The notes: generated by a model not told the origin, from the letters alone. DNA of 64,000 bases from a virus (IMGVR_UViG_3300034071_001262), one strand, 5' to 3'. Counted from the stretch's first letter, positions 49,864-64,000 are shown. Translations and numbers: made by a program.

Positions 49864-50664
49864 TTATTCTTGTATGGTGTCCGATGTTAAAAATGGCTGG
49901 TCTACTTGTCCGTCCTCATAGGTGTGATATTCTGATAAGCGTTCTTTTTCGTATTCCATTGCCAATCGCATTTTTTCCATTTCTATTCCTATCGTAGTTC
50001 TATATTGTGGATCAGTAGCTATTTTTTTTACTAGTGAAGCAAATGTTTGCTTAGAATCTTCAATCGCTTTAATTCTTTGTTCGCGTGTTCCTTTAAGATC
50101 CTTTAACATTGTTGCTTTACGTGACTGTAGATCTTTATAGTCTCTAGATAATGTTTCTTGTGATGCGCGTAACATTGCCACCTGACGCTCTAAATTGACT
50201 ATTAGATCTACGTCGCGCATATCTTTATCTTTTGCTTTTTCATCCTGTATTAGACGCTCATTGAGAACAATTTCCCGTTGGGTATCTTGTTGGCCCCTTA
50301 GAATTCTATTCATCAATATTTCTAATTTAATAGTATCCACTATTTGCATTTCTTCAGTATGGAACACATCGTCTTTAAACTGACTCCACATTTTCTTAAA
50401 ATGAAACTCAAACATTTCTAATTCTTCTGGAGAGAATTGTGAAAATAGCTCTTTATAGTAAGGCTTAGTTTTTAATTCATTTGCAACTTCAGCTTCTTTT
50501 TTTTGCTTAGTAGAAAATCCGATCTTCAGACCGATCCAATTACGAATAGATTCTGGATCTCTATCTAATGCTTTGGCTATTTCAATACTCGAAAGAACCT
50601 CGGCATTCGCCTCGATAAATTTCATTTCATCAGTAGTAAATCTACCCTTTTTCATTATCTTCAC
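49864..50664 (-). CDS. HTH/coiled-coil protein (possible terminase small subunit)
   Basis: N-terminal IAKALDRDPESIR HTH-like stretch and long coiled coil; function is a positional guess. Confidence 0.35.
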   Translation of the reverse strand: MKIMKKGRFTTDEMKFIEANAEVLSSIEIAKALDRDPESIRNWIGLKIGFSTKQKKEAEVANELKTKPYYKELFSQFSPEELEMFEFHFKKMWSQFKDDVFHTEEMQIVDTIKLEILMNRILRGQQDTQREIVLNERLIQDEKAKDKDMRDVDLIVNLERQVAMLRASQETLSRDYKDLQSRKATMLKDLKGTREQRIKAIEDSKQTFASLVKKIATDPQYRTTIGIEMEKMRLAMEYEKERLSEYHTYEDGQVDQPFLTSDTIQE

Positions 50665-51169
50665 CTTCGTTTAATATTTCTTTGATGATGTTAAGAATTA
50701 TAGCCTTACGGCTTTTAGGCAAAGGAGAGTTTGTCTTGAGTTTAAGATAGTCGCGGCGATATTTGGCGGGAAGTTTCTCATCGATATATTTTAAGATCTC
50801 AGTTATGTGAATATTATTTGGGGCGTCTTCTTTAGAAGATACAGCATATATATTATCTATACCAATAGGTTCAAGAAGGTGTTTTTTGCGATCTTGTATT
50901 TGTTGGGCGCTACCAATATCTAATCTATAGTAATTATCGCGTTTAAAATTCTTTAATCTATTTGAGATGTGGGTAAATAAGAAATTTGACAATGGGCGAG
51001 ATTCATCATACTTTTCCATTCCGTCTATTCCTATAATTACGGCCTCTTGGAATATATCGTCAACCTCATATGATGCAAAAACAAATTTGGGGGCCAGTTG
51101 TCGGGCGATCTTAGTTATAGTATCTATGACTTCTTGTTCTGTGAGATTTTTAGGAATTTTCATCTTCAA
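50642..51169 (-). CDS. Phage sigma70-family sigma factor
   Basis: Region-2 motif DDIFQEA.IIG....EKYD.SR.LSNFL...I.NRL. Confidence 0.75.
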   Translation of the reverse strand: MKMKIPKNLTEQEVIDTITKIARQLAPKFVFASYEVDDIFQEAVIIGIDGMEKYDESRPLSNFLFTHISNRLKNFKRDNYYRLDIGSAQQIQDRKKHLLEPIGIDNIYAVSSKEDAPNNIHITEILKYIDEKLPAKYRRDYLKLKTNSPLPKSRKAIILNIIKEILNEGEDNEKG

Positions 51170-51380
51170 GCCTTAATTTTTCCTCTAGGGCTTGTTCGTA
51201 TGGAATTCCATGAATAGTGTGTGGTGGCGAGTATGATGTATAGTTCCCACTGGCGAATAAATCAGACATATCTACATCTGGAACGGGCTTACTTAATATC
51301 TCACGAATTTCCCTATCTAGCTGGGCCATACTTTTAGTTTTAAGTTGGGCCTCTATATTCTGTGTTTTTTTCTTTGGCAT
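51150..51380 (-). CDS. Hypothetical protein, first gene of leftward arm
   Basis: 76 aa; GGAGG RBS. Confidence 0.65.
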   Translation of the reverse strand: MPKKKTQNIEAQLKTKSMAQLDREIREILSKPVPDVDMSDLFASGNYTSYSPPHTIHGIPYEQALEEKLRLEDENS

Positions 51381-51563: not shown

Positions 51564-51606
51564 GGCCCCCCATTTTTATCCTAAGTCTATATGTGGTAAG
51601 GACTTA
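51564..51606 (-). repeat. Half copy of the 78-bp element
   Basis: GGCCCCCC core in register, 10 nt before TAAGTCTAT-N7-AAGGACTTA. Confidence 0.65.
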
Positions 51607-51647
51607 TGTCATGCAAGAAAAATTCTCAAAAAAACGTTTGTTCAGTG

Positions 51648-51683
51648 TTGACGACTCAAGAATCTTTGGTATAATGTCGATAT
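51648..51683 (+). promoter_or_regulatory. sigma70 promoter with overlapping sigma28-like promoter
   Basis: TTGACG-16-TATAAT; TCAAG-15-GTCGATAT. Confidence 0.7.
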
Positions 51684-51699
51684 GAGAAATGAGGGACAA

Positions 51700-51819
51700 A
51701 TGACTTACTGGACAAGCAGAACGAGCGACCGATACGTTGTATACCACAATGGAAAGATTGTCGGAGACTACTTGACATTTGATCAGTGCTTCGCCCTTGT
51801 GTGTTCGCTTCGATCCTAA
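51700..51819 (+). CDS. Small hypothetical protein (39 aa)
   Basis: MTYWTSRTSDRYVVYHNGKIVGDY...; GAGG RBS after the promoter. Confidence 0.55.
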   Translation: MTYWTSRTSDRYVVYHNGKIVGDYLTFDQCFALVCSLRS

Positions 51820-51861
51820 ATAAAAGATTCTGTAGAATAGAGACAACACGAAAGGAAAAAG

Positions 51862-52077
51862 ATGTTTGCAACAGCAAATAAGCCAATTACCAACAGTCTC
51901 GATAAGATTTTCGCCGCTATGCGAACTGGTAAGTATCATGCCGTGATCGATTCGAATGGAAATACCCACATAGGTATCATCAATGGCGTGATGCGTGAAG
52001 ATGGTAGTGGAAAGAATTGGATTGTGACGGTAACTAAGCGTATACTTAGTGAGAAGGTATTCATTTACGCCAATTAG
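51862..52077 (+). CDS. Hypothetical protein
   Basis: 71 aa; AAAGGA RBS; REDGSGKNW. Confidence 0.7.
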   Translation: MFATANKPITNSLDKIFAAMRTGKYHAVIDSNGNTHIGIINGVMREDGSGKNWIVTVTKRILSEKVFIYAN

Positions 52078-52082
52078 CGATT

Positions 52083-52160
52083 CAAACCCTTGCTGCGTAA
52101 GGACTTAGGTCAACGTAGGCCCGCCGTTTTTGTCGTAAACCCTTATGCCACAAGGACTTA
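52083..52160 (-). repeat. 78-bp element copy 1 (core inverted)
   Basis: CAAACCCTT-7-AAGGACTTA, 28-nt linker with centred GGCCCGCC, TAAACCCTT-7-AAGGACTTA. Confidence 0.95.
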
Positions 52161-52178
52161 CGTTGACACCAAAGGTAG

Positions 52179-52329
52179 TGTAGCAAAATGCTGTAGCAAA
52201 ATGCAACACCTGTAGCAAAATGCCACACCTTGGCACGACGCGATCTCAAAATGAGAATGACGTAAAGTATTGTGGCGTAAGGACTTAGGAAGAAAAAAAT
52301 ATTTTTTGGTGAATGGCACAGGAAGTGCA
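52179..52329 (+). promoter_or_regulatory. sigma54 promoter with upstream enhancer-like repeats
   Basis: 3x TGTAGCAAAATGC, TCTCA-3-TGAGA, palindrome 52263-52287, TGGCAC-5-GTGCA at 52314-52329. Confidence 0.7.
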
Positions 52330-52372
52330 TATATATAGGACAACAAAGAAAGAAAGAAAGAGAGAAAGAAAA

Positions 52373-52603
52373 ATGGAAAACCTTATCGTCCTCAATACCG
52401 TTTCTGAACTTCGTGATCTGATCAATACCACTGAGATGACCACGTTTGTTGGTCGTGTTGCTTTTGCAATGGACCTTCTGGAAAGGGTTCGCCATAATGA
52501 CAACATGATCGAAATCAATCATGAGTTGGGATTCTGTGATGATGGTGGATTCATCCAGATTGATGAAATGGGTTATGTGGTCGATGATTATGCGATCCAG
52601 TGA
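52373..52603 (+). CDS. Hypothetical acidic protein
   Basis: MENLIVLNTV...; purine-rich leader. Confidence 0.7.
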   Translation: MENLIVLNTVSELRDLINTTEMTTFVGRVAFAMDLLERVRHNDNMIEINHELGFCDDGGFIQIDEMGYVVDDYAIQ

Positions 52604-52672
52604 TTCCCTATAAGGGGGGTTGTGGCGGAAGAAAAGTTTGGTAGACTCACAGAATCACTAGGAGAAAAAGAG

Positions 52673-52990
52673 ATGGAAAAGTTTCGAATCGTTGAAGAAT
52701 ACAAGCGTACAGTTCGTGGTATCTTCTACGGCATTGCGATCCCTTGCGATAAGCGTACCGCTGATGGTGGTACGATTCGCAGTGAGAAGGTATTGAAGTT
52801 CAATCGTTCCGCCCTTCGAAAGATTGGCAAGCATAAGGTCGAGAAGGTCGATCCTCGCATGGTAGGCGGTGAGGATCGTATGCGTTTCCCAGTTGGCAAG
52901 CCCGGTTCCCCCGAAAGGGTGGTTGCTCTTGCAGAGCAATATGCTAGTCTTAGTGAAGATGAGATGTCGCCCTTTACTGGAGATGAGTGA
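52673..52990 (+). CDS. Hypothetical protein
   Basis: AGGAG RBS; GKPGSPERV. Confidence 0.7.
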   Translation: MEKFRIVEEYKRTVRGIFYGIAIPCDKRTADGGTIRSEKVLKFNRSALRKIGKHKVEKVDPRMVGGEDRMRFPVGKPGSPERVVALAEQYASLSEDEMSPFTGDE

Positions 52991-52994
52991 GAAC

Positions 52995-53144
52995 ATGACC
53001 ATTCAAGTACAAAATACGCTCCGTCGCCTTGTTGCTCATCATGGTTATTCGGCTACATTTGTACAGCATATGGGAGAGGGTATATGTATGTACAGTATCG
53101 GCGGCATCATGTACCGCATTAGAGGGGATGGTACGATTCTCTAA
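52995..53144 (+). CDS. Small hypothetical protein (49 aa)
   Basis: MTIQVQNTLRRLV...YRIRGDGTIL. Confidence 0.6.
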   Translation: MTIQVQNTLRRLVAHHGYSATFVQHMGEGICMYSIGGIMYRIRGDGTIL

Positions 53145-53154
53145 GAACTCGACG

Positions 53155-53232
53155 CAAACCCTTGTGGCGTAAGGACTTACGGCAAGGGCGGCGGGCCAAA
53201 TTCGTCGTAAGTCCTTATGTGGCAACGACTTA
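53155..53232 (+). repeat. 78-bp element copy 2
   Basis: 25-28-25 structure, centred GGCGGGCC. Confidence 0.95.
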
Positions 53233-53250
53233 TGGCGACCCCAAAGGTGG

Positions 53251-53400
53251 TGTAGCAAAATGCTGTGCAAAATGCTACAGTGTGTAGCAAAATGCTACAG
53301 TGCCACGAACCGCGTCTCAAATTGAGAAAATCGTAAACCCTTATCGCATAACGACTTATGATCGCAAAAATAATTTTCGGACTTTGGCACGGGAAGTGCA
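53251..53400 (+). promoter_or_regulatory. sigma54 promoter with upstream enhancer-like repeats (second copy)
   Basis: TGTAGCA-AAA-TGCTACA at 53283-53299, TCTCA-3-TGAGA, palindrome 53334-53358, TGGCAC-5-GTGCA at 53385-53400. Confidence 0.7.
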
Positions 53401-53431
53401 TTATATAGAGGCATAAGAAAGAGAGTGAAAG

Positions 53432-53554
53432 ATGGAAAAGATGGTTGTGATTTACGTTTCCGATTGTTGTGGTTGTGAGAGTAATGTGGATTATGAAATG
53501 TGTTCTAGTTGTGGTGAACACTGTGAGATCATAAAGGAAGAATATTCCGTTTGA
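53432..53554 (+). CDS. Small Zn-finger protein (40 aa)
   Basis: SDCCG...CSSCGEHC. Confidence 0.65.
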   Translation: MEKMVVIYVSDCCGCESNVDYEMCSSCGEHCEIIKEEYSV

Positions 53555-53616
53555 TACCTCACTTTGGGGGTTGCGGCGGCGGAAACGTTTGGTAAGATTG
53601 AAGAAAAGGATTAGAA

Positions 53617-53802
53617 ATGACTGATAGTGAAAAGCAAGTTTTAGATTTTATTAGAAAGATGGAAACGAATATACTTGGAAGATGGATGGTAAACATGCAG
53701 AATATTTCCAGTAATGTTTCCGTCCATGCTAGAGAGTTTCCTAACATGTGCGTTAGTTTCGCTGCTAGTGAGTTGCTTCGACGTTATCGTCTTACTAAGT
53801 AA
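53617..53802 (+). CDS. Hypothetical protein
   Basis: AAAGGA RBS; 61 aa. Confidence 0.55.
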   Translation: MTDSEKQVLDFIRKMETNILGRWMVNMQNISSNVSVHAREFPNMCVSFAASELLRRYRLTK

Positions 53803-54054
53803 AGGATTATATGCAAGATAATATCATATTTCTAATCGGATGTTTTATTGTCGCCGGTCTGATGTGCGAGGTAGTGTGGAGCGTGTTTCTATATGTCGTC
53901 TCCCGCTTGGAATACTATTTTTACCACCGATACCTTGACAAGGTTTCCAAGTCTGGTACAATCGAGGAATGATAGCACTAATGACAGCGTTTCATGCGTT
54001 TATCGTTTTAGCCGCGTGTGCGATTGGTATTTTCTCCCTATTTAGTGAAGAAGT

Positions 54055-54360
54055 ATGAATCACGAAACTAAACTTGTTATGATGTGGATTGACAACAGCG
54101 AAGCAATGCATTATTTCTGGCGTAATCGTGCGTATTGTACATATCTAAAAGCAGAAGAAACTAAGACGTTTTCTAAGTATGAGTCGGCCAAGTACGATCT
54201 GGCTACATACATGAAGGAAAAGTTTACTACTGATATGTATGATATGTGTGAATCAAACAATGTAAATGGATTGTGGGCCGATTTGCTTTGGTCTGCTTTG
54301 CAAGATGTAAACTGGTCCGAAATTGCAGAATGTTATCTTGAAGGTCAACTCGTCTCTTGA
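54055..54360 (+). CDS. Hypothetical protein
   Basis: 101 aa; DLL.SAL.DVNW.EIAE motif. Confidence 0.7.
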   Translation: MNHETKLVMMWIDNSEAMHYFWRNRAYCTYLKAEETKTFSKYESAKYDLATYMKEKFTTDMYDMCESNNVNGLWADLLWSALQDVNWSEIAECYLEGQLVS

Positions 54361-54402
54361 CAAACCCAACTCACACGTTATAATAGAAAAAAAGGAAAAA
54401 AC

Positions 54403-54819
54403 ATGGATACGTTCAACGTCGCCCTCGCTATTGCATTTCTTGTTCTGGTTGCTTGTATTGTTTTACTTCTTATTACGGGAGGTACATACGATAGTCTTTC
54501 TAATGCTCGTATTGGTAATGTGTACAATTTCTATTATCTCCAACCGTTAAATGGTACGAATAATCGTTATCTCGTCAAGGTACTAAACATTCGCACACTT
54601 GATAAAGAGGAAATTAATTCTCTTAACTGTTTTAGTTTGTACCGTCGATGGGATGATATATTCTTTCGCACTGGCACACTTGTGACATGTGAACTTGCAG
54701 ATGGTAGCATTCGCAATTTCTATGGAGAACGTGCCACGAACTGTGTACGTATGAACACTCCTGTACTTTTGTACATGTCAAGACTGTTCGCCGTAAGTCC
54801 TTCTCCCGTAAGGGTTTAG
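54403..54819 (+). CDS. Membrane-anchored hypothetical protein
   Basis: N-terminal TM helix; own promoter at 54357-54384. Confidence 0.65.
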   Translation: MDTFNVALAIAFLVLVACIVLLLITGGTYDSLSNARIGNVYNFYYLQPLNGTNNRYLVKVLNIRTLDKEEINSLNCFSLYRRWDDIFFRTGTLVTCELADGSIRNFYGERATNCVRMNTPVLLYMSRLFAVSPSPVRV

Positions 54820-54871
54820 GACGCGGCGGGCGGGCCGCGTTTTTCGTAAGTCCTTATCCCACAACGACTTA
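54794..54871 (+). repeat. 78-bp element copy 3
   Basis: 25-28-25 structure, centred GGCGGGCC. Confidence 0.95.
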
Positions 54872-54988
54872 GGACAAGCTCGCATAGCACACGCCGTGCC
54901 ACAAAAAATAATTCTTTTTCTCAGATTTTCTGCTTGACATGGCCGATACATAGTGTAGAATCCCAGCATCACCACAACGGAGGTTCTC

Positions 54989-55180
54989 ATGTACGACTTG
55001 GATACGATCAATTCGATTCTTACTGATATGGCCGATGCTGGTATCGTAGAGCCGATGGTCGAGCCGATTGACGAACTCGACTGCCACCCCCTCGATTGGG
55101 CGGAAGTGGTCGGTTGTGCGGACGATATTTTTGACGAAGTGTATCTTGACGAAGTGGGCGATCCGTGGTATCTTGTTTGA
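54989..55180 (+). CDS. Acidic hypothetical protein
   Basis: GGAGG RBS; promoter at 54934-54961. Confidence 0.7.
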   Translation: MYDLDTINSILTDMADAGIVEPMVEPIDELDCHPLDWAEVVGCADDIFDEVYLDEVGDPWYLV

Positions 55181-55190
55181 AAAGGAAAAA

Positions 55191-55454
55191 ATGATGAGTC
55201 ACCCCGATCCCTTGTTCGATTACGATAACTCTGAGGATGATAAGATGGCAACTAACTACAGCGATTATCATTACGATTATCACGACGATTTCTATCAAGA
55301 GGTCGAAGATTACAACGATTATTACATCGAGGAAAATAGTGTGGACGATGACGAAGACTACGATGATAGCATGGATGGCGACCACGATAGTGCTATGCGT
55401 GATGCTGGATTCGGAACTGACGAAGATTATGGTTATTATGGGGAGGATTTCTGA
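55191..55454 (+). CDS. Extremely acidic D/Y-rich protein
   Basis: AAAGGA RBS; DDSMDGDHDSAMRDAGFGTDEDYG. Confidence 0.7.
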   Translation: MMSHPDPLFDYDNSEDDKMATNYSDYHYDYHDDFYQEVEDYNDYYIEENSVDDDEDYDDSMDGDHDSAMRDAGFGTDEDYGYYGEDF

Positions 55455-55456
55455 AC

Positions 55457-55663
55457 ATGATCAATTACATGTGCGATAACATCACGGTTGACAATGATTC
55501 GGAAGATGGTATTTTTCTTGGTGATAAGATGGTTGTGATTTCTGTTCCAGAGTGTGGTGGTACTGATCCTTTGGACAGGTACGATCACCTTGTGGCAGTA
55601 TCTGGAGCGTTGGAAAATGCTCTGGACTGCGGTGTACGCTCGTTCAGTTACAGTAAGATTTGA
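55457..55663 (+). CDS. Hypothetical protein
   Basis: 68 aa; GGAGG RBS. Confidence 0.6.
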   Translation: MINYMCDNITVDNDSEDGIFLGDKMVVISVPECGGTDPLDRYDHLVAVSGALENALDCGVRSFSYSKI

Positions 55664-55665
55664 TG

Positions 55666-55743
55666 CAAACCCTTGCCGCGTAAGGACTTACGACGCGGCG
55701 GGCGGGCCGGATTTGGCGTAAGTCTATATCTGATAAGGACTTA
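55666..55743 (+). repeat. 78-bp element copy 4
   Basis: 25-28-25 structure, centred GGCGGGCC. Confidence 0.95.
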
Positions 55744-55816
55744 GGAAAAATTCAAGTTTCGCTTGACAAGTGTCGATATATGTGGTAAGTTATGGTAGTG
55801 TAAGGAGTTACGTCTA

Positions 55817-55948
55817 ATGTCAAAATATGATGATTACGTACAACCGGCAGAAGAGACAGAATGTCAAATTGAGGAAGAACGGGAAAGATGGGAGGATTGG
55901 GTAAGATGGGAAGAATGGATCAACGCCCACATGCCCACCACCGACTAG
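55817..55948 (+). CDS. Small acidic protein (43 aa)
   Basis: TAAGGAG RBS; MSKYDDYVQPAEETECQIEEE... Confidence 0.6.
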   Translation: MSKYDDYVQPAEETECQIEEERERWEDWVRWEEWINAHMPTTD

Positions 55949-56050
55949 GGGGGGATTAGTGTCTAATCTAAAGAATTCAGATAGCGGGTTGTGAGGGTAG
56001 TCAGCCAAAATGCCAGTTGACAAATCTTTTTTGCATGATAGAATGAAAGT

Positions 56051-56572
56051 ATGAACATATTCGTATTAGATGAAGATCCAGTAGTCGCAGCAGAGATGTA
56101 TTGCGACAAGCACGTTCCAAAGATGGTCGTGGAACTATACCAGCAGTTGGGCAGTGCATTACGTAGGCATGGTGCCACAGACGATATGATGCCCGTTACG
56201 CAGGCTGGGAAGCCCCTTAAAGGCGGATACCACAATCATCCATGTACCAAGTGGGTTGGTGACTCTACGATTAATTATACGTGGGCAAGCAATCATGCCA
56301 AACAACTTTGTAAAGAATATACATTGAGATTTAAAAAGAGGCATTTCTGTGAAGATGGTATAGATAAGATGTATTGGATAGATGTGTTGAAGATGCCGTT
56401 TCCCGGTGTTGCTATGACACACTTTGCCCTTGCTATGCCAGACGAATACAAATCTTCTAATGCTGTTGACTCTTACCGCCGATACTATATAATGGAAAAG
56501 GCACGTTTTGCAAAATGGGAAAAGGGGCGAGATGCTCCGTACTGGTGGAATAAGGAGGAATGTCATGTCTAA
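56051..56572 (+). CDS. Pyrimidine-dimer DNA glycosylase (DenV-like) family protein
   Basis: MNIFVLD.DP..AA...CDKHV.KM..E..Q.L, NHPCTKW, AMPDEYK...V.SYRRYY. Confidence 0.8.
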   Translation: MNIFVLDEDPVVAAEMYCDKHVPKMVVELYQQLGSALRRHGATDDMMPVTQAGKPLKGGYHNHPCTKWVGDSTINYTWASNHAKQLCKEYTLRFKKRHFCEDGIDKMYWIDVLKMPFPGVAMTHFALAMPDEYKSSNAVDSYRRYYIMEKARFAKWEKGRDAPYWWNKEECHV

Positions 56573-56813
56573 TATTTTTGATACATATACTGCCGCACAA
56601 TTGCGTGAGATATATACTAACACGCCCCAAGAGAATTGGCCGGAAGATTTCCTACACTTTATTCATGATGAAATTGCAAGTGAATTACTGGATAACTGGC
56701 TAGAGCAGTCTGATATGGATGAGTATATGGAAAAGGCTAGAGAAATTGTAGAAGATGTGACGTATGGCTATCAAGATGAAGATGGAAATGAAATGCTAGA
56801 ATTTAATGCTTGA
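56565..56813 (+). CDS. Acidic hypothetical protein
   Basis: AGGAGG RBS; 82 aa. Confidence 0.65.
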   Translation: MSNIFDTYTAAQLREIYTNTPQENWPEDFLHFIHDEIASELLDNWLEQSDMDEYMEKAREIVEDVTYGYQDEDGNEMLEFNA

Positions 56814-56894
56814 CAACACACGGGTCTATGGTAGAATAACGTTAAAATAGCCATAGATAAAAGATAGTCTGGTATGGCCGACACCCGTGTTAAT

Positions 56895-56967
56895 GCCTTC
56901 GTAGCTCAATTGGCAGAGCAAGGAGCTTTTAACTCTTAGGTTCTAGGTTCGATTCCTAGCGAAGGCA
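56895..56967 (+). tRNA. tRNA-Lys(UUU)
   Basis: Full cloverleaf; anticodon loop CTTTTAA; GTTCGATTC T-arm. Confidence 0.92.
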
Positions 56968-57115
56968 CTATTATGCCCATGAGAAAATGTCATAAATATG
57001 AAATCCGTCGCATGTACGGGTCAACAAAATCTCTAAAACCAGAGCGAAAATCTACTTTTGTGTATATCATAAATATGGTGCGAAGTGTCTTACTCGGTAA
57101 AAAGGAGATGTAGTC

Positions 57116-57277
57116 ATGGTTCGTGATGATGATGTTGATGATGTTGGCTACCTTTGCATGGATAATTTCACTTATAATGAAAATGTTATGAGTTATGCTA
57201 GTTACGAACCTGACGACTATATCGTTGATGACGAAGATGCTTGGTACAATTTCTTATATGATGGAGACGGAGGCTGA
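57116..57277 (+). CDS. Small acidic protein (53 aa)
   Basis: AAGGAG RBS; MVRDDDVDDVGY... Confidence 0.65.
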   Translation: MVRDDDVDDVGYLCMDNFTYNENVMSYASYEPDDYIVDDEDAWYNFLYDGDGG

Positions 57278-57294
57278 CGCTGAGTTGCGTGGCT

Positions 57295-57367
57295 GGCCCC
57301 ATCGTCTAACGGTTTAGGACAACGGATTTTCGTTCCGTTTATCGGGGTTCGAATCCCCGTGGGGTCA
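57295..57367 (+). tRNA. tRNA-Glu(UUC)
   Basis: Cloverleaf; anticodon loop TTTTCGT; GGTTCGAATCC. Confidence 0.9.
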
Positions 57368-57374
57368 TTTTTTC

Positions 57375-57402
57375 TAAAGAATCCTTTTGTCGTTGCCGAT
57401 AA
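57375..57402 (+). promoter_or_regulatory. sigma28 (FliA)-like promoter
   Basis: TAAAG-15-GCCGATAA with no nested TTGACA. Confidence 0.6.
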
Positions 57403-57439
57403 GTAATATGTGGCAAGGCAACTACGAAAGGAAAGTAAG

Positions 57440-57784
57440 ATGATTCAGTGGGTTACAATCGTTATTGGCGTTATTGGTTTGATTTATAACGGATATAAGG
57501 ATTATTCAACTGGGCAAATAAAATCGCCCTTGACAATCCAGCAACAGCAGGTAGAATCAAAACCAAGGATGCCAATCATGTATTGGCAAGTAGCGTTCGA
57601 TCCTAATACTGGTAAACTTTATCACCTAAATAGAGATGGGAAATGGTATGACGGCCCGCCACAAGTACGAGAATATCAAAATCAAAGTCAAGAAGCGTTG
57701 GGAACTGTCCACGGGTCACCGGGAACACAGGGATACGCTTATGGACAATCGTCCCAAGCGTATGCGTACACGCAAGGATATTGA
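57440..57784 (+). CDS. Membrane-anchored hypothetical protein
   Basis: AAAGGA RBS; MIQWVTIVIGVIGLIY. Confidence 0.55.
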   Translation: MIQWVTIVIGVIGLIYNGYKDYSTGQIKSPLTIQQQQVESKPRMPIMYWQVAFDPNTGKLYHLNRDGKWYDGPPQVREYQNQSQEALGTVHGSPGTQGYAYGQSSQAYAYTQGY

Positions 57785-57815
57785 GCGTGGATGGAGACAG
57801 GAGTACGATTCGTGA
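57648..57815 (+). CDS. Small basic protein (55 aa), overlapping reading frame
   Basis: MTARHKYENIKIKVKKRW...DNRPKRMRTR; GTGA-coupled to the next gene; promoter at 57530. Confidence 0.6.
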   Translation: MTARHKYENIKIKVKKRWELSTGHREHRDTLMDNRPKRMRTRKDIERGWRQEYDS

Positions 57816-57970
57816 CTGTTATATGTAAAGACTGTGGCAGTGATAGAATTGGTTTTGATGCTTGGGTTGATAAGGATGGTAACGTAATTGGCGGTCCATA
57901 CGACAACTCTCTATGTATGGATTGTGGGTGCGAAGAAATTGTGGAAAAAGAGGTATTGACAAGTCAATAA
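57812..57970 (+). CDS. Zn-ribbon protein (52 aa)
   Basis: CKDCGS...CMDCG; AGGAG RBS. Confidence 0.65.
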   Translation: MTVICKDCGSDRIGFDAWVDKDGNVIGGPYDNSLCMDCGCEEIVEKEVLTSQ

Positions 57971-57991
57971 TAGAGTGTAGAATACAAACTT

Positions 57992-58128
57992 GCGTGGGTC
58001 TAGCGACTAGATTGGGATAACCTGTACGATAAACCTACGGCTGTTATGCAGCGTGGGGTTGCCTAACGGGGTTATACGTTAGGATAGTATACCAATCTAA
58101 CGGGGTGCGATTCCCTGTCCACGCTCCA
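57992..58128 (+). ncRNA. tRNA-like structured RNA (137 nt, CCA end)
   Basis: Acceptor GCGTGGG/TCCACGC-T-CCA, T-arm, large internal structured domain, own promoter at 57956-57983. Confidence 0.7.
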
Positions 58129-58131
58129 TAC

Positions 58132-58290
58132 AACCAGTAACCGTTCCCAAGAGCCAGACGATATGAGTCATGAACATATCTAGGGAGGATTTCCGTGGAC
58201 GGTTTCTACCAGTGTTTACCTTGCTCCAAGGGTTCATAATATCGGGGTATTGGTGGGTTATAGAATCGGGGCGTAAACGATTCGCTGGTT
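58132..58290 (+). ncRNA. Structured RNA (~159 nt)
   Basis: Closing stem AACCAGT/GCTGGTT enclosing three further stem domains; no ORF. Confidence 0.6.
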
Positions 58291-58309
58291 ATAATACAAG
58301 GAAAATGAA

Positions 58310-58447
58310 ATGAAGGTTTATGTTGTATTTGATATTCCCGGTATTGATCCAGACGATGAAGATGCTGACGAGATTATCGCAGTATTAGAAGATACTATTG
58401 ACGAACTAGGATACGAGTGGTATATTGATGATGCTACTGAGGACTAA
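58310..58447 (+). CDS. Small acidic protein (45 aa)
   Basis: AAGGA RBS; MKVYVVFDIPGIDPDDEDADE. Confidence 0.6.
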   Translation: MKVYVVFDIPGIDPDDEDADEIIAVLEDTIDELGYEWYIDDATED

Positions 58448-58481
58448 GCATGAGAATCTTTCGTAAAATTATTGTGAGAGT

Positions 58482-58676
58482 ATGAAGATGACATGGCGAA
58501 GTGGACAACCTATTGATATGGGCTACTATCTTTGTGCTATTGTTGGTATCAATAAGCCTAGTGAATTATATTGGGATGGTGCTTCTTGGAGTTATCAAGA
58601 TTGGGAAACTCTTGATAGTAATGAAGTTGCATATTATATGTATCTTGGTGATATTCCTATGCCGGAGGGTTGGTAA
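58482..58676 (+). CDS. Hypothetical protein (DUF551-like)
   Basis: W..G.P...GYYL...YWDG..W...V.YYM. Confidence 0.55.
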   Translation: MKMTWRSGQPIDMGYYLCAIVGINKPSELYWDGASWSYQDWETLDSNEVAYYMYLGDIPMPEGW

Positions 58677-58930
58677 TGGAATGGATTAGTTTCTTCGGTC
58701 CTCGACGCCCTATTAACGGGCAGAAGGTTTATTACTTTGGCGAGTATATCGGAGTGTGGCAGGGAAGGTATGAGATTCATAGGGATGATCCTGTGAGTGA
58801 ACATATCTTGATTTGTGAAGAAAGTCCCGGCATTGTAGATCGTATGGATGCTCCGTGGTGGATGCCATATGAGGGACAGCCCAAACCAGTACGACCAGAA
58901 AACGATTATCCAAAGGATTATCCTTCATAA
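58676..58930 (+). CDS. Hypothetical protein (DUF551-like)
   Basis: MEWIS...RP..GQ.V...WWMP; TAATG coupling. Confidence 0.6.
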   Translation: MEWISFFGPRRPINGQKVYYFGEYIGVWQGRYEIHRDDPVSEHILICEESPGIVDRMDAPWWMPYEGQPKPVRPENDYPKDYPS

Positions 58931-58933
58931 AAT

Positions 58934-59104
58934 ATGAATAAAGAACAAGAACAAGCAATTAAAATGACCATCAACTTTCTAAGAAATAGATTATTGGGGG
59001 TCAATAAACATTATTACGATGCGGTCTTGACAGCAGTAAAGATGCATGATATAACTCTTGAAGACGTATTAGAATATTGGAGAAAGGAAGCAGGAAACGT
59101 ATGA
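58934..59104 (+). CDS. Hypothetical protein (56 aa)
   Basis: Hand translation MNKEQEQAIKMTINFLRNR...; ATGA overlap with the next gene. Confidence 0.55.
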   Translation: MNKEQEQAIKMTINFLRNRLLGVNKHYYDAVLTAVKMHDITLEDVLEYWRKEAGNV

Positions 59105-59472
59105 TCAAGATTGATTTGACGGTTCGTGAAGCGGTGGATTTGGCGATCTACTGCCCAGCAGAAATGCGCGAAAAGATCGTGGCCGCACTGGAAAGTGCTA
59201 TTGACGGAAAAGAGCAGTATCATGTTACGATCACTAGTGGCATGACCACGAACAATCGTATTCCTTGTATCAAGGCTGTGCGTCAGCACACCGGGTGGGG
59301 ATTGAAGGAAGCGAAGGATTGGACCGATGGTATGATCGGACACTGGGACGCTTATGGCGTGTGGCACAAGGGCGACCTGAACCAGATATCGGTGCGTCTG
59401 AAAACCAAAGAGGCGGCTGAAAATCTGCTTCGTGACCTGAAGAATATTGGTTGCGAAGGTTACTTGTCCTAA
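59101..59472 (+). CDS. Ribosomal L7/L12 C-terminal-domain-like protein
   Basis: IPCIKAVRQHTGWGLKEAKDW...EAAE.L...L...G. Confidence 0.75.
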   Translation: MIKIDLTVREAVDLAIYCPAEMREKIVAALESAIDGKEQYHVTITSGMTTNNRIPCIKAVRQHTGWGLKEAKDWTDGMIGHWDAYGVWHKGDLNQISVRLKTKEAAENLLRDLKNIGCEGYLS

Positions 59473-59547
59473 ACCCTTACACCGCAAGCATTTACGCTGC
59501 GGCGGGCGGGCCGCGTTCGCCGTAAGTCCTTATCTGACAAAGCTTTA
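59470..59547 (+). repeat. 78-bp element copy 5
   Basis: 25-28-25 structure, centred GGCGGGCC; begins with the TAA stop of the upstream gene. Confidence 0.95.
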
Positions 59548-59573
59548 CGAACAACCTAAGATTTTTCGGTAGT

Positions 59574-59633
59574 TGGCATACGCTTTGCTCTCTAAAGTTT
59601 TCCCCTTGACTGTGCCGATATATATGCTAAGAT
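59574..59633 (+). promoter_or_regulatory. Stacked sigma54 / sigma28 / sigma70-like promoters
   Basis: TGGCAT-5-TTGCT; TAAAG-16-GCCGATAT; TTGACT-16-TAAGAT. Confidence 0.65.
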
Positions 59634-59654
59634 AGCAGGACACAGGAGAAAATC

Positions 59655-60359
59655 ATGAAAGTCGCAAACGGTAATGATAAGTTGGGTAAGGGTTGTATTG
59701 TTGTTTCTCGTCCCGTTGGAGATACTTGTCCGTCTGATTGTGAGTTTCTCGACAATGGATGTTATGCAGAGCAGACCGAGAAGATGTATCCCGGTGTTCG
59801 TCCCGCTGGTATGCAGAATCTTATTACTGAAAAGAATCGCATTAGGTCGATGATCCTCGACGCCGTTTCTAAAAACAAGTCTATCCGTTGGCATGAGCGT
59901 GGCGATTGGTTTCTCAATGGTGAACTGGATACGGACTATGTTGAGAATGTAACGTGGGCTTGTGAGAGTATTCTTGCAGAGGGTAAGACTCTCCCAGATA
60001 TGTGGTTTTATACTCATATCTACGATAGTCGCCTTGTGGCTTTCAGTAAGTATATGGCGGTATATGCTAGTATCCACAACGCTGAAGATAAGAAACAAGC
60101 CGAAGCCGCTGGTTTCAAACTGTTCGCATGGTGCGACAGCGACCAGAAGATTGCTAAGAAACGCCCCAAGCGTAAGAATCTCGCGGATGCTTGGCGGGCT
60201 TCACTTCCTAAGTTAGTTATTATTGACGATACGAAGTATATTACTTGCCCCGAGATTCGTCGTGGTCGCGGTGTTGTTACTTGCACTCCGACGAAGGGTA
60301 GTGTATCATGCGATCTGTGCGTTCGCGGCCTTGCAAACGTTCTCTTTCCCTCTCACTGA
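59655..60359 (+). CDS. GP88-like Cys-rich protein
   Basis: N.KLG...TCP..C....CYA, IRWHE.GD, WFYT, TCPE...C..C. Confidence 0.65.
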   Translation: MKVANGNDKLGKGCIVVSRPVGDTCPSDCEFLDNGCYAEQTEKMYPGVRPAGMQNLITEKNRIRSMILDAVSKNKSIRWHERGDWFLNGELDTDYVENVTWACESILAEGKTLPDMWFYTHIYDSRLVAFSKYMAVYASIHNAEDKKQAEAAGFKLFAWCDSDQKIAKKRPKRKNLADAWRASLPKLVIIDDTKYITCPEIRRGRGVVTCTPTKGSVSCDLCVRGLANVLFPSH

Positions 60360-60370
60360 GATTATATACT

Positions 60371-60865
60371 ATGCCCAAACCTTTATTTGCTGACGCTGGT
60401 AGTCGCTCATCGTTTTTTATTATTGACGAAAAGAGTGGCTTCAAGACTTTTAGTTCCTATGATGATGCAGAATATGCACACTATGCACAGTCTAAACTTG
60501 CAGAGCATAATCTAGCCCCTAGAGTATTGAGCGAAGTAAAGAAAATGATTGTGGGCGGTTATAAAGAGTGGGGATTTGTAACAGAAAAAGCAGAAGTTAT
60601 GGGGTGTGGCGGTAATGAGTGTGCGTGTGGTGAGTGTGAAGATATATGGGAATCTAAACTTAGGTATATAAACAACCTATGTAATAAGATAGAAGAATTA
60701 GGTTTTCATTTCGCGGATAATCATATTGGTAACCTTGGATATGTAAAACGTAAGGGTCGCCGCAAGTTAGTTTGTATTGATACTGGGGCTGAAAGTGTTA
60801 GTGCTGAATACGATCCGTATGAAGATGAAGAATGTTCGTGTACTGGATGTAGGAGACTATCATGA
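60371..60865 (+). CDS. Protein kinase-like (APH/RIO-type fold) protein
   Basis: LAPRV, D.H.GN.G catalytic loop (DNHIGNLG), LVCIDTG. Confidence 0.6.
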   Translation: MPKPLFADAGSRSSFFIIDEKSGFKTFSSYDDAEYAHYAQSKLAEHNLAPRVLSEVKKMIVGGYKEWGFVTEKAEVMGCGGNECACGECEDIWESKLRYINNLCNKIEELGFHFADNHIGNLGYVKRKGRRKLVCIDTGAESVSAEYDPYEDEECSCTGCRRLS

Positions 60866-61098
60866 AATACTATATCTCTTGCGGAAGTCTAAACATTATC
60901 TATAGTACTAGCAAAAATGCTAGAGATGCTTGTAAGACTGCTATATGGGAATGTAATGAGAATGACGTACTAGATGAATATTTTTATGTTGACGAGCGTG
61001 GATATAGGGGCTATACTACAGCAGACAAGCATACAACCGTTATACCTACGGATGAGATCATGCAAGAAGAGGGGTGGGAACTAAATGGAAATGACTGA
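60862..61098 (+). CDS. Hypothetical protein
   Basis: 78 aa; ATGA coupling. Confidence 0.65.
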   Translation: MKYYISCGSLNIIYSTSKNARDACKTAIWECNENDVLDEYFYVDERGYRGYTTADKHTTVIPTDEIMQEEGWELNGND

Positions 61099-61418
61099 GC
61101 GTGAGAAAGAAATAATGTTGTGGGCCTTGAGTTCATATCATACGTTTATCATATCACAAATAGTAAGCAGGGAAAAGTCTGGTAAGATAGAACATAATTT
61201 TAGAAGTATAGAACAGGATATTGCACAATTACTCAAGAGGTTTGACGAATAATATGTACCACTACATCACTGTTAGTATTGTAATGCGTGACTGTGAATC
61301 CAAAACGGATGCACGAAGAAAGTGTGTGAAACTATTACCATGCGATCCAGATGCCACTACTAAATACATGGAATCTTGGGCGATTGCAGAAATAAGAGCC
61401 GCAGATTCAAACGAGTCG

Positions 61419-61496
61419 CAAGTCCTTGACCCGTAAGGGTTTAGGGCCGACGCGGCGGGCCGCCCTCGCCATAAGTCCTTACGCCACAACGAGTTA
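61419..61496 (+). repeat. 78-bp element copy 6
   Basis: 25-28-25 structure, centred GGCGGGCC. Confidence 0.95.
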
Positions 61497-61515
61497 TGTC
61501 AAAAGAAAAATTTTT

Positions 61516-61555
61516 TCAAGATTGTGGTTGACAGAGCCGATAATAGTGATATACT
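61516..61555 (+). promoter_or_regulatory. Nested sigma28-like / sigma70 promoter
   Basis: TCAAG-15-GCCGATAA overlapping TTGACA-16-TATACT. Confidence 0.7.
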
Positions 61556-61598
61556 TAGGGCATGATGGTTGATTGAGTGTAACACAAAGATAGGAGTT

Positions 61599-61865
61599 AT
61601 GAATATGAAAACGTTTGATTTTGTTGTGACTGTTGCGAGTGATAATCTTGATACCGAGGTAATCGAGGATACGCTTCGTGCGTCTCTTGTTGATAGCCTT
61701 CCAGAAAATGTGCCTTCGCTGGTCAAGTTTTCTGGCGTGAAGGAGTATAGCGAACAGGGCTGGAAGGTTGCCCGTAATCGTAAGTTTGGAATCAGTGTCG
61801 AGCAGGCTGGTGATGGTGTTAGCAAGGCAAAGGCCAAGTCTGAGATTGCTGATGCCACTGCTTGA
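61599..61865 (+). CDS. Hypothetical protein
   Basis: AGGAG RBS; host-like codon bias. Confidence 0.7.
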   Translation: MNMKTFDFVVTVASDNLDTEVIEDTLRASLVDSLPENVPSLVKFSGVKEYSEQGWKVARNRKFGISVEQAGDGVSKAKAKSEIADATA

Positions 61866-61912
61866 CAAATGGTCACTAGGTCGTTACAATTGGGTATCGG
61901 CCTAGTGACTAT

Positions 61913-61984
61913 GGCCCCGTAGTTCAATGGATAGAACGGGTGACTTCTAATCTCCAGATGGGAGTTCGATTCTCTCCGGGGCTA
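61913..61984 (+). tRNA. tRNA-Arg(UCU)
   Basis: Cloverleaf; anticodon loop CTTCTAA; one T-T mismatch in the anticodon stem. Confidence 0.85.
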
Positions 61985-62013
61985 TCGGGAATTGTAATGT
62001 TTAGGAGAATGTT

Positions 62014-62154
62014 ATGAAGATTGTTGGAATTGGTACTAAGTTGCAGTTGGGTACTGTGGTTAGTATCACACGCGAAGGCGTGGTGGTTGATCGTCAAGGG
62101 AAGAGGGTCACTGTGACTTTCTCGCAAGTTGAAACTGAAGTTTTTGGAGGTTGA
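62014..62154 (+). CDS. Small hypothetical protein (46 aa)
   Basis: AGGAG RBS; MKIVGIGTKLQLGTVVSITREGV. Confidence 0.65.
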   Translation: MKIVGIGTKLQLGTVVSITREGVVVDRQGKRVTVTFSQVETEVFGG

Positions 62155-62159
62155 TTATT

Positions 62160-62375
62160 ATGGGTTACATTACGTTGAGCAACGCTATCGCTGTCGGTAA
62201 GGTTCTTCGCTGCAAGTATCCGAAGCATGGTAGCATGAATGTTTTGAAGTGGCATGAGGGTGTGATCGAGAAGGCGAGTTTCGGGCCGCATGGTGCCTAC
62301 GCTCTCGTTCGCTCCAATAACGGCCAGTATCGTACCCTGCGTTGCGATAAGATGCTTGACGCATCGGTGTCGTGA
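62160..62375 (+). CDS. Small SH3/WYL-like protein
   Basis: GGAGG RBS; C-terminal GQYRTLRCDKM resembles WYL 'R.FR.DRI'. Confidence 0.45.
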   Translation: MGYITLSNAIAVGKVLRCKYPKHGSMNVLKWHEGVIEKASFGPHGAYALVRSNNGQYRTLRCDKMLDASVS

Positions 62376-62428
62376 TCCCTTGACGGGGCGAGTGGCCCGT
62401 GCTATAATGGTGCGGGTCACTCGTTCAT

Positions 62429-62504
62429 GGGGCGTAAGGTAAGCCGGTAGCATCCGACACTCTTATAAGGTGTTCATAGGTACGTTCGACTCGTACACGC
62501 CCTA
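62429..62504 (+). tRNA. tRNA-Ile(UAU)
   Basis: Acceptor GGGGCGT/ACGCCCT, anticodon loop CTTATAA, T-arm GTACG-TTCGACT-CGTAC; promoter at 62380. Confidence 0.85.
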
Positions 62505-62627
62505 CTGTCCATTTGTGTGGGGTGATCATGATGTATATTTTTCTTATGGTGATAACGTGTGTTATACATAGTATTATGAATAAAAGTAAGATATTTATCT
62601 ACTAAATAAAGATGTAGTCATCACACA

Positions 62628-62664
62628 AGCAAACCTCGCTCATAATAATGGGCGGGGTTTTGCT
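62628..62664 (+). terminator. Rho-independent terminator
   Basis: aaacctcgctcat-aata-atgggcggggtttt. Confidence 0.6.
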
Positions 62665-62683
62665 ATTATATAGACAGTCGCCA

Positions 62684-62761
62684 TAAGTCCTTTGCCAGTA
62701 AGGGTTTAGGAACGGGGCGGCGGGCCGCGTTCGCCATAAGTCCTTATGCCACAAGCATTTA
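62684..62761 (+). repeat. 78-bp element copy 7
   Basis: 25-28-25 structure, centred GGCGGGCC. Confidence 0.95.
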
Positions 62762-62837
62762 CGTCTAAGAGAAATTTCTAATGCTCACCCCTTGACACTG
62801 ACGATATACATGGTATGATCGTGGAAAAGGAGTCGTT

Positions 62838-63077
62838 ATGGTTGCTGCAAATACTGCTGTTTTTGACATGGTTTTGGAAGCGGATTGTCGTCTATGTTAT
62901 AAGACATATCTTATCTTCCTTTGTCGTGAAGATTATACGTCATGGATGTCTGGTTCTGGATTTGTTCAAGATATTCTTCCGTATCTTACTGCGGGTGAGC
63001 GTGAATTGCTCATCAGTAACACTTGTTCCGACTGCTTCGATAAACTTTTTCCGCCTGACGTTGACAACAACGCCTGA
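62838..63077 (+). CDS. Zn-binding hypothetical protein
   Basis: C..C...VQD.LPYLT..ERELLIS.TC..CFD. Confidence 0.7.
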   Translation: MVAANTAVFDMVLEADCRLCYKTYLIFLCREDYTSWMSGSGFVQDILPYLTAGERELLISNTCSDCFDKLFPPDVDNNA

Positions 63078-63123
63078 CGCTGTATAATAAGAGAAACCTT
63101 CCCACTACTAGGAGATGATGATA

Positions 63124-64000
63124 ATGAGCGATTATAACCGTTTGACGATTGATTCCGACAAGAACGCTGGTGCGTTTGTTCGCAATTTGCAGGGTGTTAC
63201 TGGCACCGGTTTTGCAGAGGGTACGCATGTTCATAAGGATTGGTGGTCGAAAACCAAGTCTTACGAAGATGTCATGCAGGAAGCACAGACTGCCGTCGAT
63301 AATCGTGAGGATATTCTGACTGAAATCAAGAATATTTCTTGCGTTGTTCACAATGGTGAGTTTCGTTTCCGCGTTGCGGATGGTCGAACGTTTCGTCCTA
63401 CTGACCACTGCATCGAGCAGTTCAGCGTTCGAACGGGCGTGACTTCCTCGTCGTTCCTTCGTGAGATGCGAAACATCGAGGGATTCGATGATAGTGATGC
63501 TTCTACGATGGTCGCCGTTGGAAACAATGCCATGCGTCGAATTGAATCTGATAAGAAGTTCCGCATCCGTACCTATACCGATGGTACTGCTAGAGCGTTC
63601 GTGACTGAGCAATACGCCCCAGTTGATAATCGTTGGTATCTCGACGTTGTTCGTGAGTTTATTCCAGATGGTCGATTCAGCCATTGGAAGGGCGACGAGG
63701 ATACCATCTATGGTAACGTTCTTATTCCCGATACCATTATGGACTACGGGCAGGATGACGATACGGATTATGGTGGGATGATTAGTGTCGGAAATTGTGA
63801 GGTTGGCACTCGCCGTATCTCGCAGGTTCCTAGCCTGTTTCGTGCCATCTGCTTGAACGGTTGCATTTGGGGCCAGACTGCGGGCGAAAAGATTCGTCGT
63901 GTTCATCGTGGCAATATTGATCTCGCCAAACTGAAGTTGGAAATCGCTGAGAATATTCAGCAGCAGATTCCTCTTCTGTCGCCGGGTATCAAGCAGTTCC
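63124..64000 (+). CDS. DUF932-like protein (partial, runs off right edge)
   Basis: Hand translation MSDYNRLTIDS...YAPVDN...GNCEVG...LFRAICLNG...RRVHRG; promoter TTGACA-16-TATAAT at 63061. Confidence 0.7.
   Translation, partial: MSDYNRLTIDSDKNAGAFVRNLQGVTGTGFAEGTHVHKDWWSKTKSYEDVMQEAQTAVDNREDILTEIKNISCVVHNGEFRFRVADGRTFRPTDHCIEQFSVRTGVTSSSFLREMRNIEGFDDSDASTMVAVGNNAMRRIESDKKFRIRTYTDGTARAFVTEQYAPVDNRWYLDVVREFIPDGRFSHWKGDEDTIYGNVLIPDTIMDYGQDDDTDYGGMISVGNCEVGTRRISQVPSLFRAICLNGCIWGQTAGEKIRRVHRGNIDLAKLKLEIAENIQQQIPLLSPGIKQF

Follow-up and report, generated by a model that had tools for sequence, protein, structure and literature searches.

A rigid double-dyad element heads promoter-linked gene modules in a clade of uncultured jumbo phages

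Introduction

What is the function of a 78-bp palindromic element that recurs seven times between the small genes of a phage? The locus in question is part of IMGVR_UViG_3300034071_001262, a 64,000-nucleotide stretch of viral DNA that is referred to here, over its whole length, as the window. A first-pass annotation, made from the sequence alone, proposed that the copies form a nucleoprotein site system, serving either as directional recombination sites for shuffling or inverting gene cassettes or as phased DNA-wrapping sites. Here we describe the conservation, geometry, distribution and surroundings of the element in the window and in related phages. With slightly better than even confidence, we read the elements as duplex-DNA docking modules for a bending or regulatory protein, placed whole helical turns upstream of early promoters and marking modules that are swapped between phages.

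Results

Anatomy of the element

The seven copies of 78 bp described by the first-pass annotation were all recovered, with starts at 52083, 53155, 54794, 55666, 59470, 61419 and 62684, and they form a single repeat family that aligns without gaps (Table 1). Each copy has two 25-bp palindromes, TAARYCCTT-N7-AAGGRYTTA, joined by a 28-bp linker. A scan of the window with the consensus found 16 palindromes at two or fewer mismatches, compared to 0.06 expected from shuffled sequences; fourteen of these are paired, two stand singly at 51582 and 53334, and all lie within 51582-62761. The extra palindromes that had been noted 126-127 bp further on were found at 52263 and 53334, which is 127 bp past the second palindrome of copy 1 and 126 bp past that of copy 2. 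Six of the seven copies have GGCGGGCC as the central 8-mer and copy 1 has GGCCCGCC, and the N7 spacers differ among all window copies, as they also do in relatives. As had been proposed, six copies abut or contain the stop codon of an upstream open reading frame (ORF; ends at 52077, 53144, 54819, 55663, 59472 and 61436), and a promoter-like site follows each of the seven.

Distribution in relatives and in bacteria

The element family is present in related phages. An exact-pattern scan of IMG/VR found at least 119 contigs with the pattern, and the family counts given below draw on the contigs listed among those matches, which carry at least 120 paired elements on at least 36 contigs. Element-bearing contigs share a terminase (53-83% identity) and a sigma-like gene with the window, which belongs to a clade of uncultured jumbo phages. 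Two relatives are complete, at 230.7 and 232.7 kb; 23 of the 24 palindromes in one lie within 18.5 kb, and all 15 in the other lie within 19.4 kb. With its copies confined to one stretch of ~19 kb, the element belongs to a single region, presumably early, rather than to the genome at large.

Megablast and blastn searches with the region and with one element found no close cultured relative among 50,697 phage records, and the terminase is at most 27% identical to those of Bacillus and Microcystis phages. Rfam, searched at a permissive threshold, returned tRNAs only, with no match on the elements, and none of the matching papers listed in a literature search describes the element sequences as a phage or bacterial motif. 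The novelty claimed at first pass, which a match to a described family would have removed, is thus sustained across Rfam, cultured phages and literature. We conclude that the element is genuine and widespread, and that the literature searched contains no description of it.

The same palindrome does occur in many bacterial genome contigs, mostly in single copies. Of 128 exact bacterial matches, 23 lie 1-27 bp after a tRNA gene, and some are plain terminators. In several genomes, of Planctomycetota and others, the 9-7-9 palindrome follows a tRNA gene by 1-7 bp and reaches or overlaps the 3' end of a convergent tyrosine integrase gene (contigs L183, L167, L213, L198, L144 and L127, and contigs L240-L255 of genomes G006/G007). 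In genome G007, ~10 such copies are spread over different tRNA genes, suggesting a family of integrative elements present in multiple copies. A match was found in 61 of 301 Planctomycetota genomes, usually one each, compared to ~20 for a reversed control; these few single matches rule out a high-copy host motif, and the host is not identified by them. We therefore treat the bacterial look-alikes as hairpins and att-side features with a simple dyad, and not as proof of a host or of homology.

Conservation points to a probable duplex-DNA site

In an alignment (A2) of 75 element copies oriented by transcription, the TAA, TT, AA and TTA positions are 93-100% invariant and N7 is free. Conservation runs outward from the palindrome, so that each dyad spans ~37 bp, TTGaCG-TAA...TTA-CGnCAA, with a 15-7-15 arm layout once the flanks are included. 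Invariant arms around a free center are a hallmark of duplex DNA that is bound by a symmetric protein. The four half-sites are not all alike: TAAACCCTT predominates in the outer left one, both inner ones are TAAGTCCTT, and TAAGTCGTT (bottom strand) predominates in the outer right one. As a result, the arms are systematically non-complementary, and alignment columns 14/32, 15/31 and 70/82 are unpaired in 45-51 of the 75 copies.

No excess of pairing over shuffled sequences was seen among these copies. For the two local hairpins, 75.4% of cells were paired compared to 75.7% in shuffles, with covariation of 0.121 compared to 0.124; for the long L-R hairpin, 67.3% were paired compared to 68.8%. 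The minimum-energy RNA folds of the seven window copies were all different, with z between -0.1 and -3.6. To judge from its sequence, the element looks like a duplex-DNA protein site and not a hairpin.

The central 8-mer, which the first-pass annotation had called invariant, is so only in the window. In relatives the center is G/C-only but variable (GGCGGGCC in 23 cases, GGCCCGCC in 16, and many others), so that the invariance is merely local; a mild strand bias is seen in oriented copies, with 18 of GGCGGGCC against 4 of GGCCCGCC. This core has almost no excess hairpin potential (mean z -0.43), and the next five bases average 1.7 T. A terminator scan found no GC-rich stem with a U-tract at the elements, and no U-tract after either palindrome. 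With neither a conserved hairpin nor a U-tract, an intrinsic terminator in the GC core was ruled out.

Fixed spacing and helical phasing to promoters

Across the family, the distance between neighboring palindromes is 53 bp in 128 pairs (39 loci), 52 bp in 28 and 54 bp in 3, in agreement with the 53-bp repeat reported for the window. A distance of 53 bp is five helical turns and therefore places both dyads on the same face of the DNA. Minor spacings of 40-42 and 124-128 bp are likewise near whole helical turns.

A strong sigma70-type promoter lies no more than 250 bp downstream in 84 of 128 elements, and the distances from element end to -35 box cluster near 21, 31, 42, 53 and 63 bp. A Rayleigh test on these distances gave R = 0.60 at a period of 10.7-11 bp (p ~6e-12; 0 of 2000 null sets). 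When one module was taken per homology cluster (51 clusters), R was ~0.65 (0 of 2000), and homologous modules step by ~10-11 bp. The distances in the window are 42, 63, 20, 59, 32 and 31 bp. Conserved arms without covariation, the fixed 53 bp and the helical register with the promoter all speak for phased nucleoprotein sites, the second of the two possibilities raised at first pass.

Sigma54-type boxes (TGGCAC-N5-TTGCW) number 78 in the family, compared to ~3 expected by our own estimate from the information content of the pattern. Palindrome centers lie 38-39, 49-50 or 60-65 bp ahead of the TGGCAC; with its T placed at ~-27, arithmetic puts these centers at ~-66, -77 and -87. In the window, the single palindromes past elements 1 and 2 both stand between three GTAGCAAAATGC repeats and a sigma54-type box. 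These repeats (52180-52223 and 53252-53295) recur as single copies in the 56-66 bp spacer class of relatives, and they look like enhancer (upstream activating sequence) sites.

Two further motifs accompany the promoters. GCCGATA is present in the -35/-10 spacer of nearly all element-linked promoters (54934-54961, 59606-59633, 61528-61555, 62792-62819 and relatives); it resembles a sigma28 -10 box, and CTAAAGATTT often lies upstream. Reverse sigma54-like boxes are found between the element and the forward sigma70-type promoter at 54886-54901 (minus strand) in the window and, in seven copies, in the related contig L044. Since the L044 boxes are part of a TGCCAAA...TTTGGCA inverted repeat, the reverse-oriented boxes may not be promoters but a distinct site for some protein.

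Elements travel with the downstream promoter and genes

Early-gene content is mosaic among the relatives. In pairwise comparisons oriented by transcription, 97 homology blocks start at the upstream element edge (within -20 to +19) for 107 elements, compared to 0.19 per ordinary gene end, and only 13 blocks end at the downstream edge. Block starts in the window fall at 52084, 53146-53153, 54845, 59475-59504 and 62671-62680, and in contig L013 a homologue of 51892-52082 is found in another cassette. The upstream gene ends at the element or a few bases from it, and its stop codon is often the element's own TAA. Because the blocks start at the upstream edge, the element, the downstream promoter and the genes move together; they travel as one module, and their order is not fixed. 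By analogy with the promoter early stem-loops (PeSLs) of T4-type phages, ordinary homologous recombination between the conserved elements probably explains this shuffling.

The cassette shuffling suggested by the first-pass annotation thus holds as an evolutionary pattern, with gene order varying among relatives and blocks starting at the element edge. Gene-content breakpoints, which it had suggested testing for a position at the core, fall at the upstream edge of the elements, with no fixed crossover point.

Resemblance to IHF sites and candidate binding proteins

AA-N4-TTA is invariant in all four half-sites and matches the IHF core CAAnnnnTTR; 44-56% of left-outer halves and 62-68% of right-outer halves have the C of CAA. 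The T8-T9 and A17-A18 steps, both invariant, lie 9 bp from each other, and this distance and the ~37-bp conservation are compatible with the geometry of IHF, in which the kinks are 9 bp apart with WATCAR between them and TTR in the flank (bioRxiv 10.1101/382655). The resemblance to the IHF core noted at first pass therefore stands as geometry (AA-N4-TTA and 9-bp steps); it does not extend to the site as a whole, which is symmetric, or to the gene content of the complete relatives, in which no HU/IHF gene was found.

The most conserved early protein (52673-52987) was considered as the binder and rejected, as its model is of low confidence (predicted local distance difference test, pLDDT, 66.7) and it has no PDB relative. 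The conserved 266-aa neighbor belongs to an uncharacterized viral protein family, and its N-terminus, read by eye from the sequence, appears to be a helix-turn-helix followed by a coiled coil.

Surroundings of the elements in the window

The window is divided into a minus-strand late block (~1 to 51400) and, from ~51600, a region of small plus-strand genes that includes four tRNAs and ~20 near-consensus sigma70-type promoters (Table 1). The terminator scan found 8 intrinsic terminators in the small-gene region compared to 8.4 expected, none of them at elements. Composition shifts sharply between the two parts, from G+C of ~33% with negative GC skew (1-51000) to ~43% with GC skew of +0.2 (51600-64000). 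The late block also encodes a 2619-aa tape-measure protein, beside which a 3187-aa ORF (8355-17918, minus strand) has no Pfam or PHROG match. Adjoining the early region is a conserved leftward trio (49864-51380, minus strand) that encodes 76-aa, 175-aa sigma-like (Sigma70_r2) and 266-aa proteins, which are possible regulators of late or middle transcription. Within the early region, the overlapping plus-strand ORFs 54989-55180 and 55068-55454 encode very acidic, D/E/Y-rich proteins that are conserved in 11-12 related loci and look like DNA-mimic or host-takeover proteins. The early plus-strand ORF 59077-59472 has a short match to the C-terminal domain of ribosomal protein L7/L12 (E = 3e-8).

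Table 1. Positions of elements, palindromes, promoter-like sites and selected genes in the window
Feature	Position	Strand	Description
Major head protein	40341-41339	-	minus-strand late block
Large terminase	45569-47548	-	minus-strand late block
Small sigma-like protein	50642-51169	-	minus-strand late block
Half-element	51564-51606		GC-rich core GGCCCCCC and one right-type palindrome (51582-51606); first rightward promoter 42 bp on
Element 1	52083-52160		palindromes 52083-52107 and 52136-52160; core GGCCCGCC, inverted
Single palindrome	52263-52287		more degenerate; between GTAGCAAAATGC repeats and sigma54-type box; center 39 bp before TGGCAC
Sigma54-type box	52314-52330	+	TGGCAC-N5-GTGCA; downstream of element 1
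Element 2	53155-53232		
Single palindrome	53334-53358		center 39 bp upstream of sigma54-type box at 53385
Sigma54-type box, second	53385-53401	+	downstream of element 2
Element 3	54794-54871		stop codon of ORF 54403-54819 inside; -35 box at 54934, 63 bp on
Promoter example	54934-54961	+	TTGACA, spacer with GCCGATA, TAGAAT; others at 51648, 55763, 59606, 61528 and 62792
Element 4	55666-55743		2 bp past stop of ORF 55457-55663; TTGACA at 55763, 20 bp on
Element 5	59470-59547		first TAA is stop codon of ORF 59077-59472; -35 box at 59606
Element 6	61419-61496		stop of ORF 61221-61436 inside; -35 box at 61528, 32 bp on
Element 7	62684-62761		downstream of tRNA-Ile (62429-62505); -35 box at 62792, 31 bp on

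Discussion

What was observed directly is the conservation pattern of the element, its lack of covariation, its 53-bp geometry, its phasing to promoters, its restriction to the early region and its position at module boundaries. In the docking-module reading that we favor, a symmetric (dimeric), sequence-specific architectural or regulatory protein would bind the two ~37-bp dyads, whose centers are 53 bp apart and which the G/C-only core would separate. The module would stand whole helical turns upstream of an early promoter, with either a sigma70-type or a sigma54-type box, and act on transcription initiation. The likeliest mechanism would be sharp bending or wrapping of the upstream DNA, so that every transcription module would begin with a nucleoprotein knob that works like an enhancer or as an insulator. 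Homologous recombination between copies would swap the unit of element, promoter and genes among related phages, as the element is the sole sequence common to all modules.

Protein binding and DNA bending are what we infer from these observations, and the same is true of the sign of the effect, activation or shut-off, and of the source of the protein. As to the source, we tentatively prefer a host-supplied, IHF/HU-type U-turn bender. A host protein is suggested because early promoters have to be active when no phage protein has yet been made. A bending protein is suggested because the sites serve two sigma classes, at the classical bend position of sigma54 promoters, and because the 9-bp TT/AA steps and AA-N4-TTA reproduce the published IHF geometry (10.1101/382655). 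A more far-reaching version, possible but doubtful as a whole, is that a host-encoded or virion-delivered architectural protein wraps the ~90-bp double dyad into a knob that is both a portable enhancer or insulator for two sigma classes and a recombination linker, through which ready-to-express modules are exchanged in a large jumbo-phage clade. If this is true, the element would be a standardized "plug" for accessory genes.

Several results weigh against the docking-module reading. No HU/IHF-family gene (PF00216), one of the genes that the first-pass annotation had suggested looking for, turned up in the five relatives searched, two of which are complete, and no convincing enhancer-binding protein was found in the complete relatives, where the match to the AAA+ family of sigma54 activators is weak. 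A classical IHF site is asymmetric: one half fits the consensus, and the other often holds an A-tract. The sites described here are near-symmetric, with the motif in both halves and no A-tract half, and the WAT positions of the IHF consensus WATCAANNNNTTR are not conserved. Element 5 is off-phase, at 59 bp. Most strong promoter-like sites of the window's early region have no element, so that promoters as such can function without it. The reading does not account for the G/C core or its mild strand bias, and abutment of the upstream stop codon is also what a role at the end of a unit, for instance as a roadblock or terminator, would lead one to expect.

An end-of-unit function is part of the alternative that survives best, which we nevertheless consider rather unlikely. 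Here the elements would be operators or roadblocks for a phage-encoded regulator, an early or middle protein that occupies the four half-sites and shuts off the adjacent early promoter. Looping or wrapping could be the means, as for phi29 p4 at A2b/A2c, and the protein may also block upstream read-through like stoperators or the MrpR-bound SPβ repeated element (SPBRE). The duplex-site evidence and the promoter phasing serve this explanation equally, and the element abuts the upstream stop in a region without intrinsic terminators above chance. There is also a precedent in SPBRE and MrpR, an intergenic repeat that is read by a phage master regulator (PMC10516654), and the half-site variants TAAGTCCTT, TAAGTGCTT and TAAGTTGTT differ between sub-clades, as would follow from co-evolution of the sites with a phage protein. 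However, the sites center at ~-69 to -164, upstream of the promoter and not over it, and no second operator was seen downstream. Nor is a candidate protein tied to the sites. The most conserved early protein has a low pLDDT, and the 266-aa neighbor is uncharacterized apart from the motifs read by eye.

A function in RNA or single-stranded DNA, as terminators, RNase processing sites, mRNA stabilizers or hairpin promoters, appears very improbable. The element does stand right after stop codons, its palindromes can fold (z of -3.6 for copy 2), similar palindromes are tRNA-gene terminator hairpins in some bacteria, and PeSL stem-loops are terminators (PMC2839356). On the other side are the lack of covariation and the conserved stem mismatches, together with a variable loop on an invariant stem, which is the reverse of protein-bound RNA hairpins. 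The absence of a U-tract, the inconsistent folds and the lack of an Rfam match argue in the same direction, and phasing to a downstream promoter is a property of duplex DNA. As for N4-type hairpin promoters read by a virion RNA polymerase, the 3187-aa virion-module protein is without a family match and sigma70-type promoters are abundant.

We give similarly little credence to a topological insulator or gyrase site, at which a topoisomerase or nucleoid protein would isolate supercoiling between packed strong promoters, as has been proposed for the bacterial interspersed mosaic elements (BIMEs) and repetitive extragenic palindromes (REPs) of E. coli. The position between tandem, very strong promoters fits, as does the BIME-like design of two palindromic units around a linker in a rigid element of ~90 bp. 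BIMEs, however, are GC-rich hairpins around an IHF linker, the reverse layout, and the phasing to the -35 box favors a promoter-directed role.

Site-specific recombination, the directional alternative of the first-pass annotation, fares worst. It would take the 9-7-9 palindrome for a tyrosine-recombinase core at which cassettes are excised, inverted or exchanged, as at attC or pdif, possibly by a host Xer-type enzyme; the arm-spacer-arm geometry fits, cassette order differs in relatives with breakpoints at elements, and look-alike palindromes lie beside tyrosine integrase genes at tRNA genes in some bacteria. We dismiss it as scarcely credible because N7 differs between copies of one genome, which would prevent strand exchange between them, because a search of two complete and three partial relatives (G001-G005; controls positive) detected no PF00589 recombinase, because the "directional" 8-mer varies once one leaves the window, because helical phasing to promoters has no role in recombination, and because the breakpoints lie at the element edge, as homologous exchange predicts, and not at a fixed crossover.

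If the docking-module reading holds, a portable control module composed of docking site, phased spacer and promoter would head each early cassette in widespread uncultured giant phages. The element could then be used as a defined DNA bait to isolate its reader protein, and possibly to find the host. Control that depends on helical phase could be tested with it at phage promoters of both the sigma70 and the sigma54 type, and it would add a mechanism, beyond T4-type PeSLs, for the exchange of accessory genes in units that are ready for expression. Its rigid geometry and the strong promoters are possible engineering parts.

Comparison with known systems

In evolutionary behavior, the closest described system is the PeSL cassettes of T4-type phages (Arbiol et al. 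2010, PMC2839356). Like the elements described here, these are intergenic cassettes that start at the upstream stop codon, with a strong sigma70-type early promoter and A/T-rich upstream DNA, and they are repeated through small accessory genes where recombination between copies shuffles modules. A promoter-bearing intergenic repeat at the borders of shuffled modules is what we found as well, and to this extent the analogy drawn at first pass is apt. The PeSL repeat consists of a promoter and a G/C-tract hairpin of variable position that acts as a terminator (PMC2839356). No conserved terminator stem-loop was found here; in its place is a rigid, sequence-specific pair of dyads with no pairing constraint, a fixed 53 bp and promoter phasing.

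In mechanism, the closest systems are phased upstream sites for architectural or regulatory proteins, such as IHF sites and the phi29 p4 regions. The elements resemble the IHF sites upstream of sigma54, lambda PL and Mu Pe promoters in their match to CAAnnnnTTR, 9-bp steps and ~35-37-bp footprint, in centering near -66 of sigma54-type boxes and in being in phase with sigma70-type promoters. They differ in being near-symmetric, in lacking a conserved WAT, in having the C mainly in the outer halves (44-68%) and in being paired five turns apart. The phi29 p4 regions (A2c, A2b and A3) are inverted-repeat regulator sites phased upstream of promoters, where DNA bending and a multi-site complex switch early transcription. 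One such control region is present per phi29 genome, compared to 7-17 copies heading modules here, and the sequences are unrelated.

Short conserved elements repeated across the intergenic and promoter regions of one phage are also known, and in those cases they are read by one phage regulator. The stoperators of cluster A mycobacteriophages are 13-bp asymmetric sites. SPBRE of Bacillus phage SPbeta is a 15-bp motif in many intergenic and promoter regions that is bound by MrpR (PMC10516654), and it was rejected as the same motif. Neither has rigid double dyads or is described as helically phased at a distance, and no MrpR-like or integrase-fold gene was detected at Pfam sensitivity.

Composite palindromic elements directly after gene ends are likewise familiar from BIME-1, also called reiterative IHF BIME (RIB), which joins palindromic units to an architectural-protein site, and from attC, which borders cassettes. 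In BIME-1, however, GC-rich hairpin units flank a central IHF site, the reverse of the layout seen here, and attC needs IntI, folded single strands and conserved R''/R' cores, none of which are present. The element is thus a variant, with a rigid double-dyad design, among known phased upstream sites and PeSL-like shuffling.

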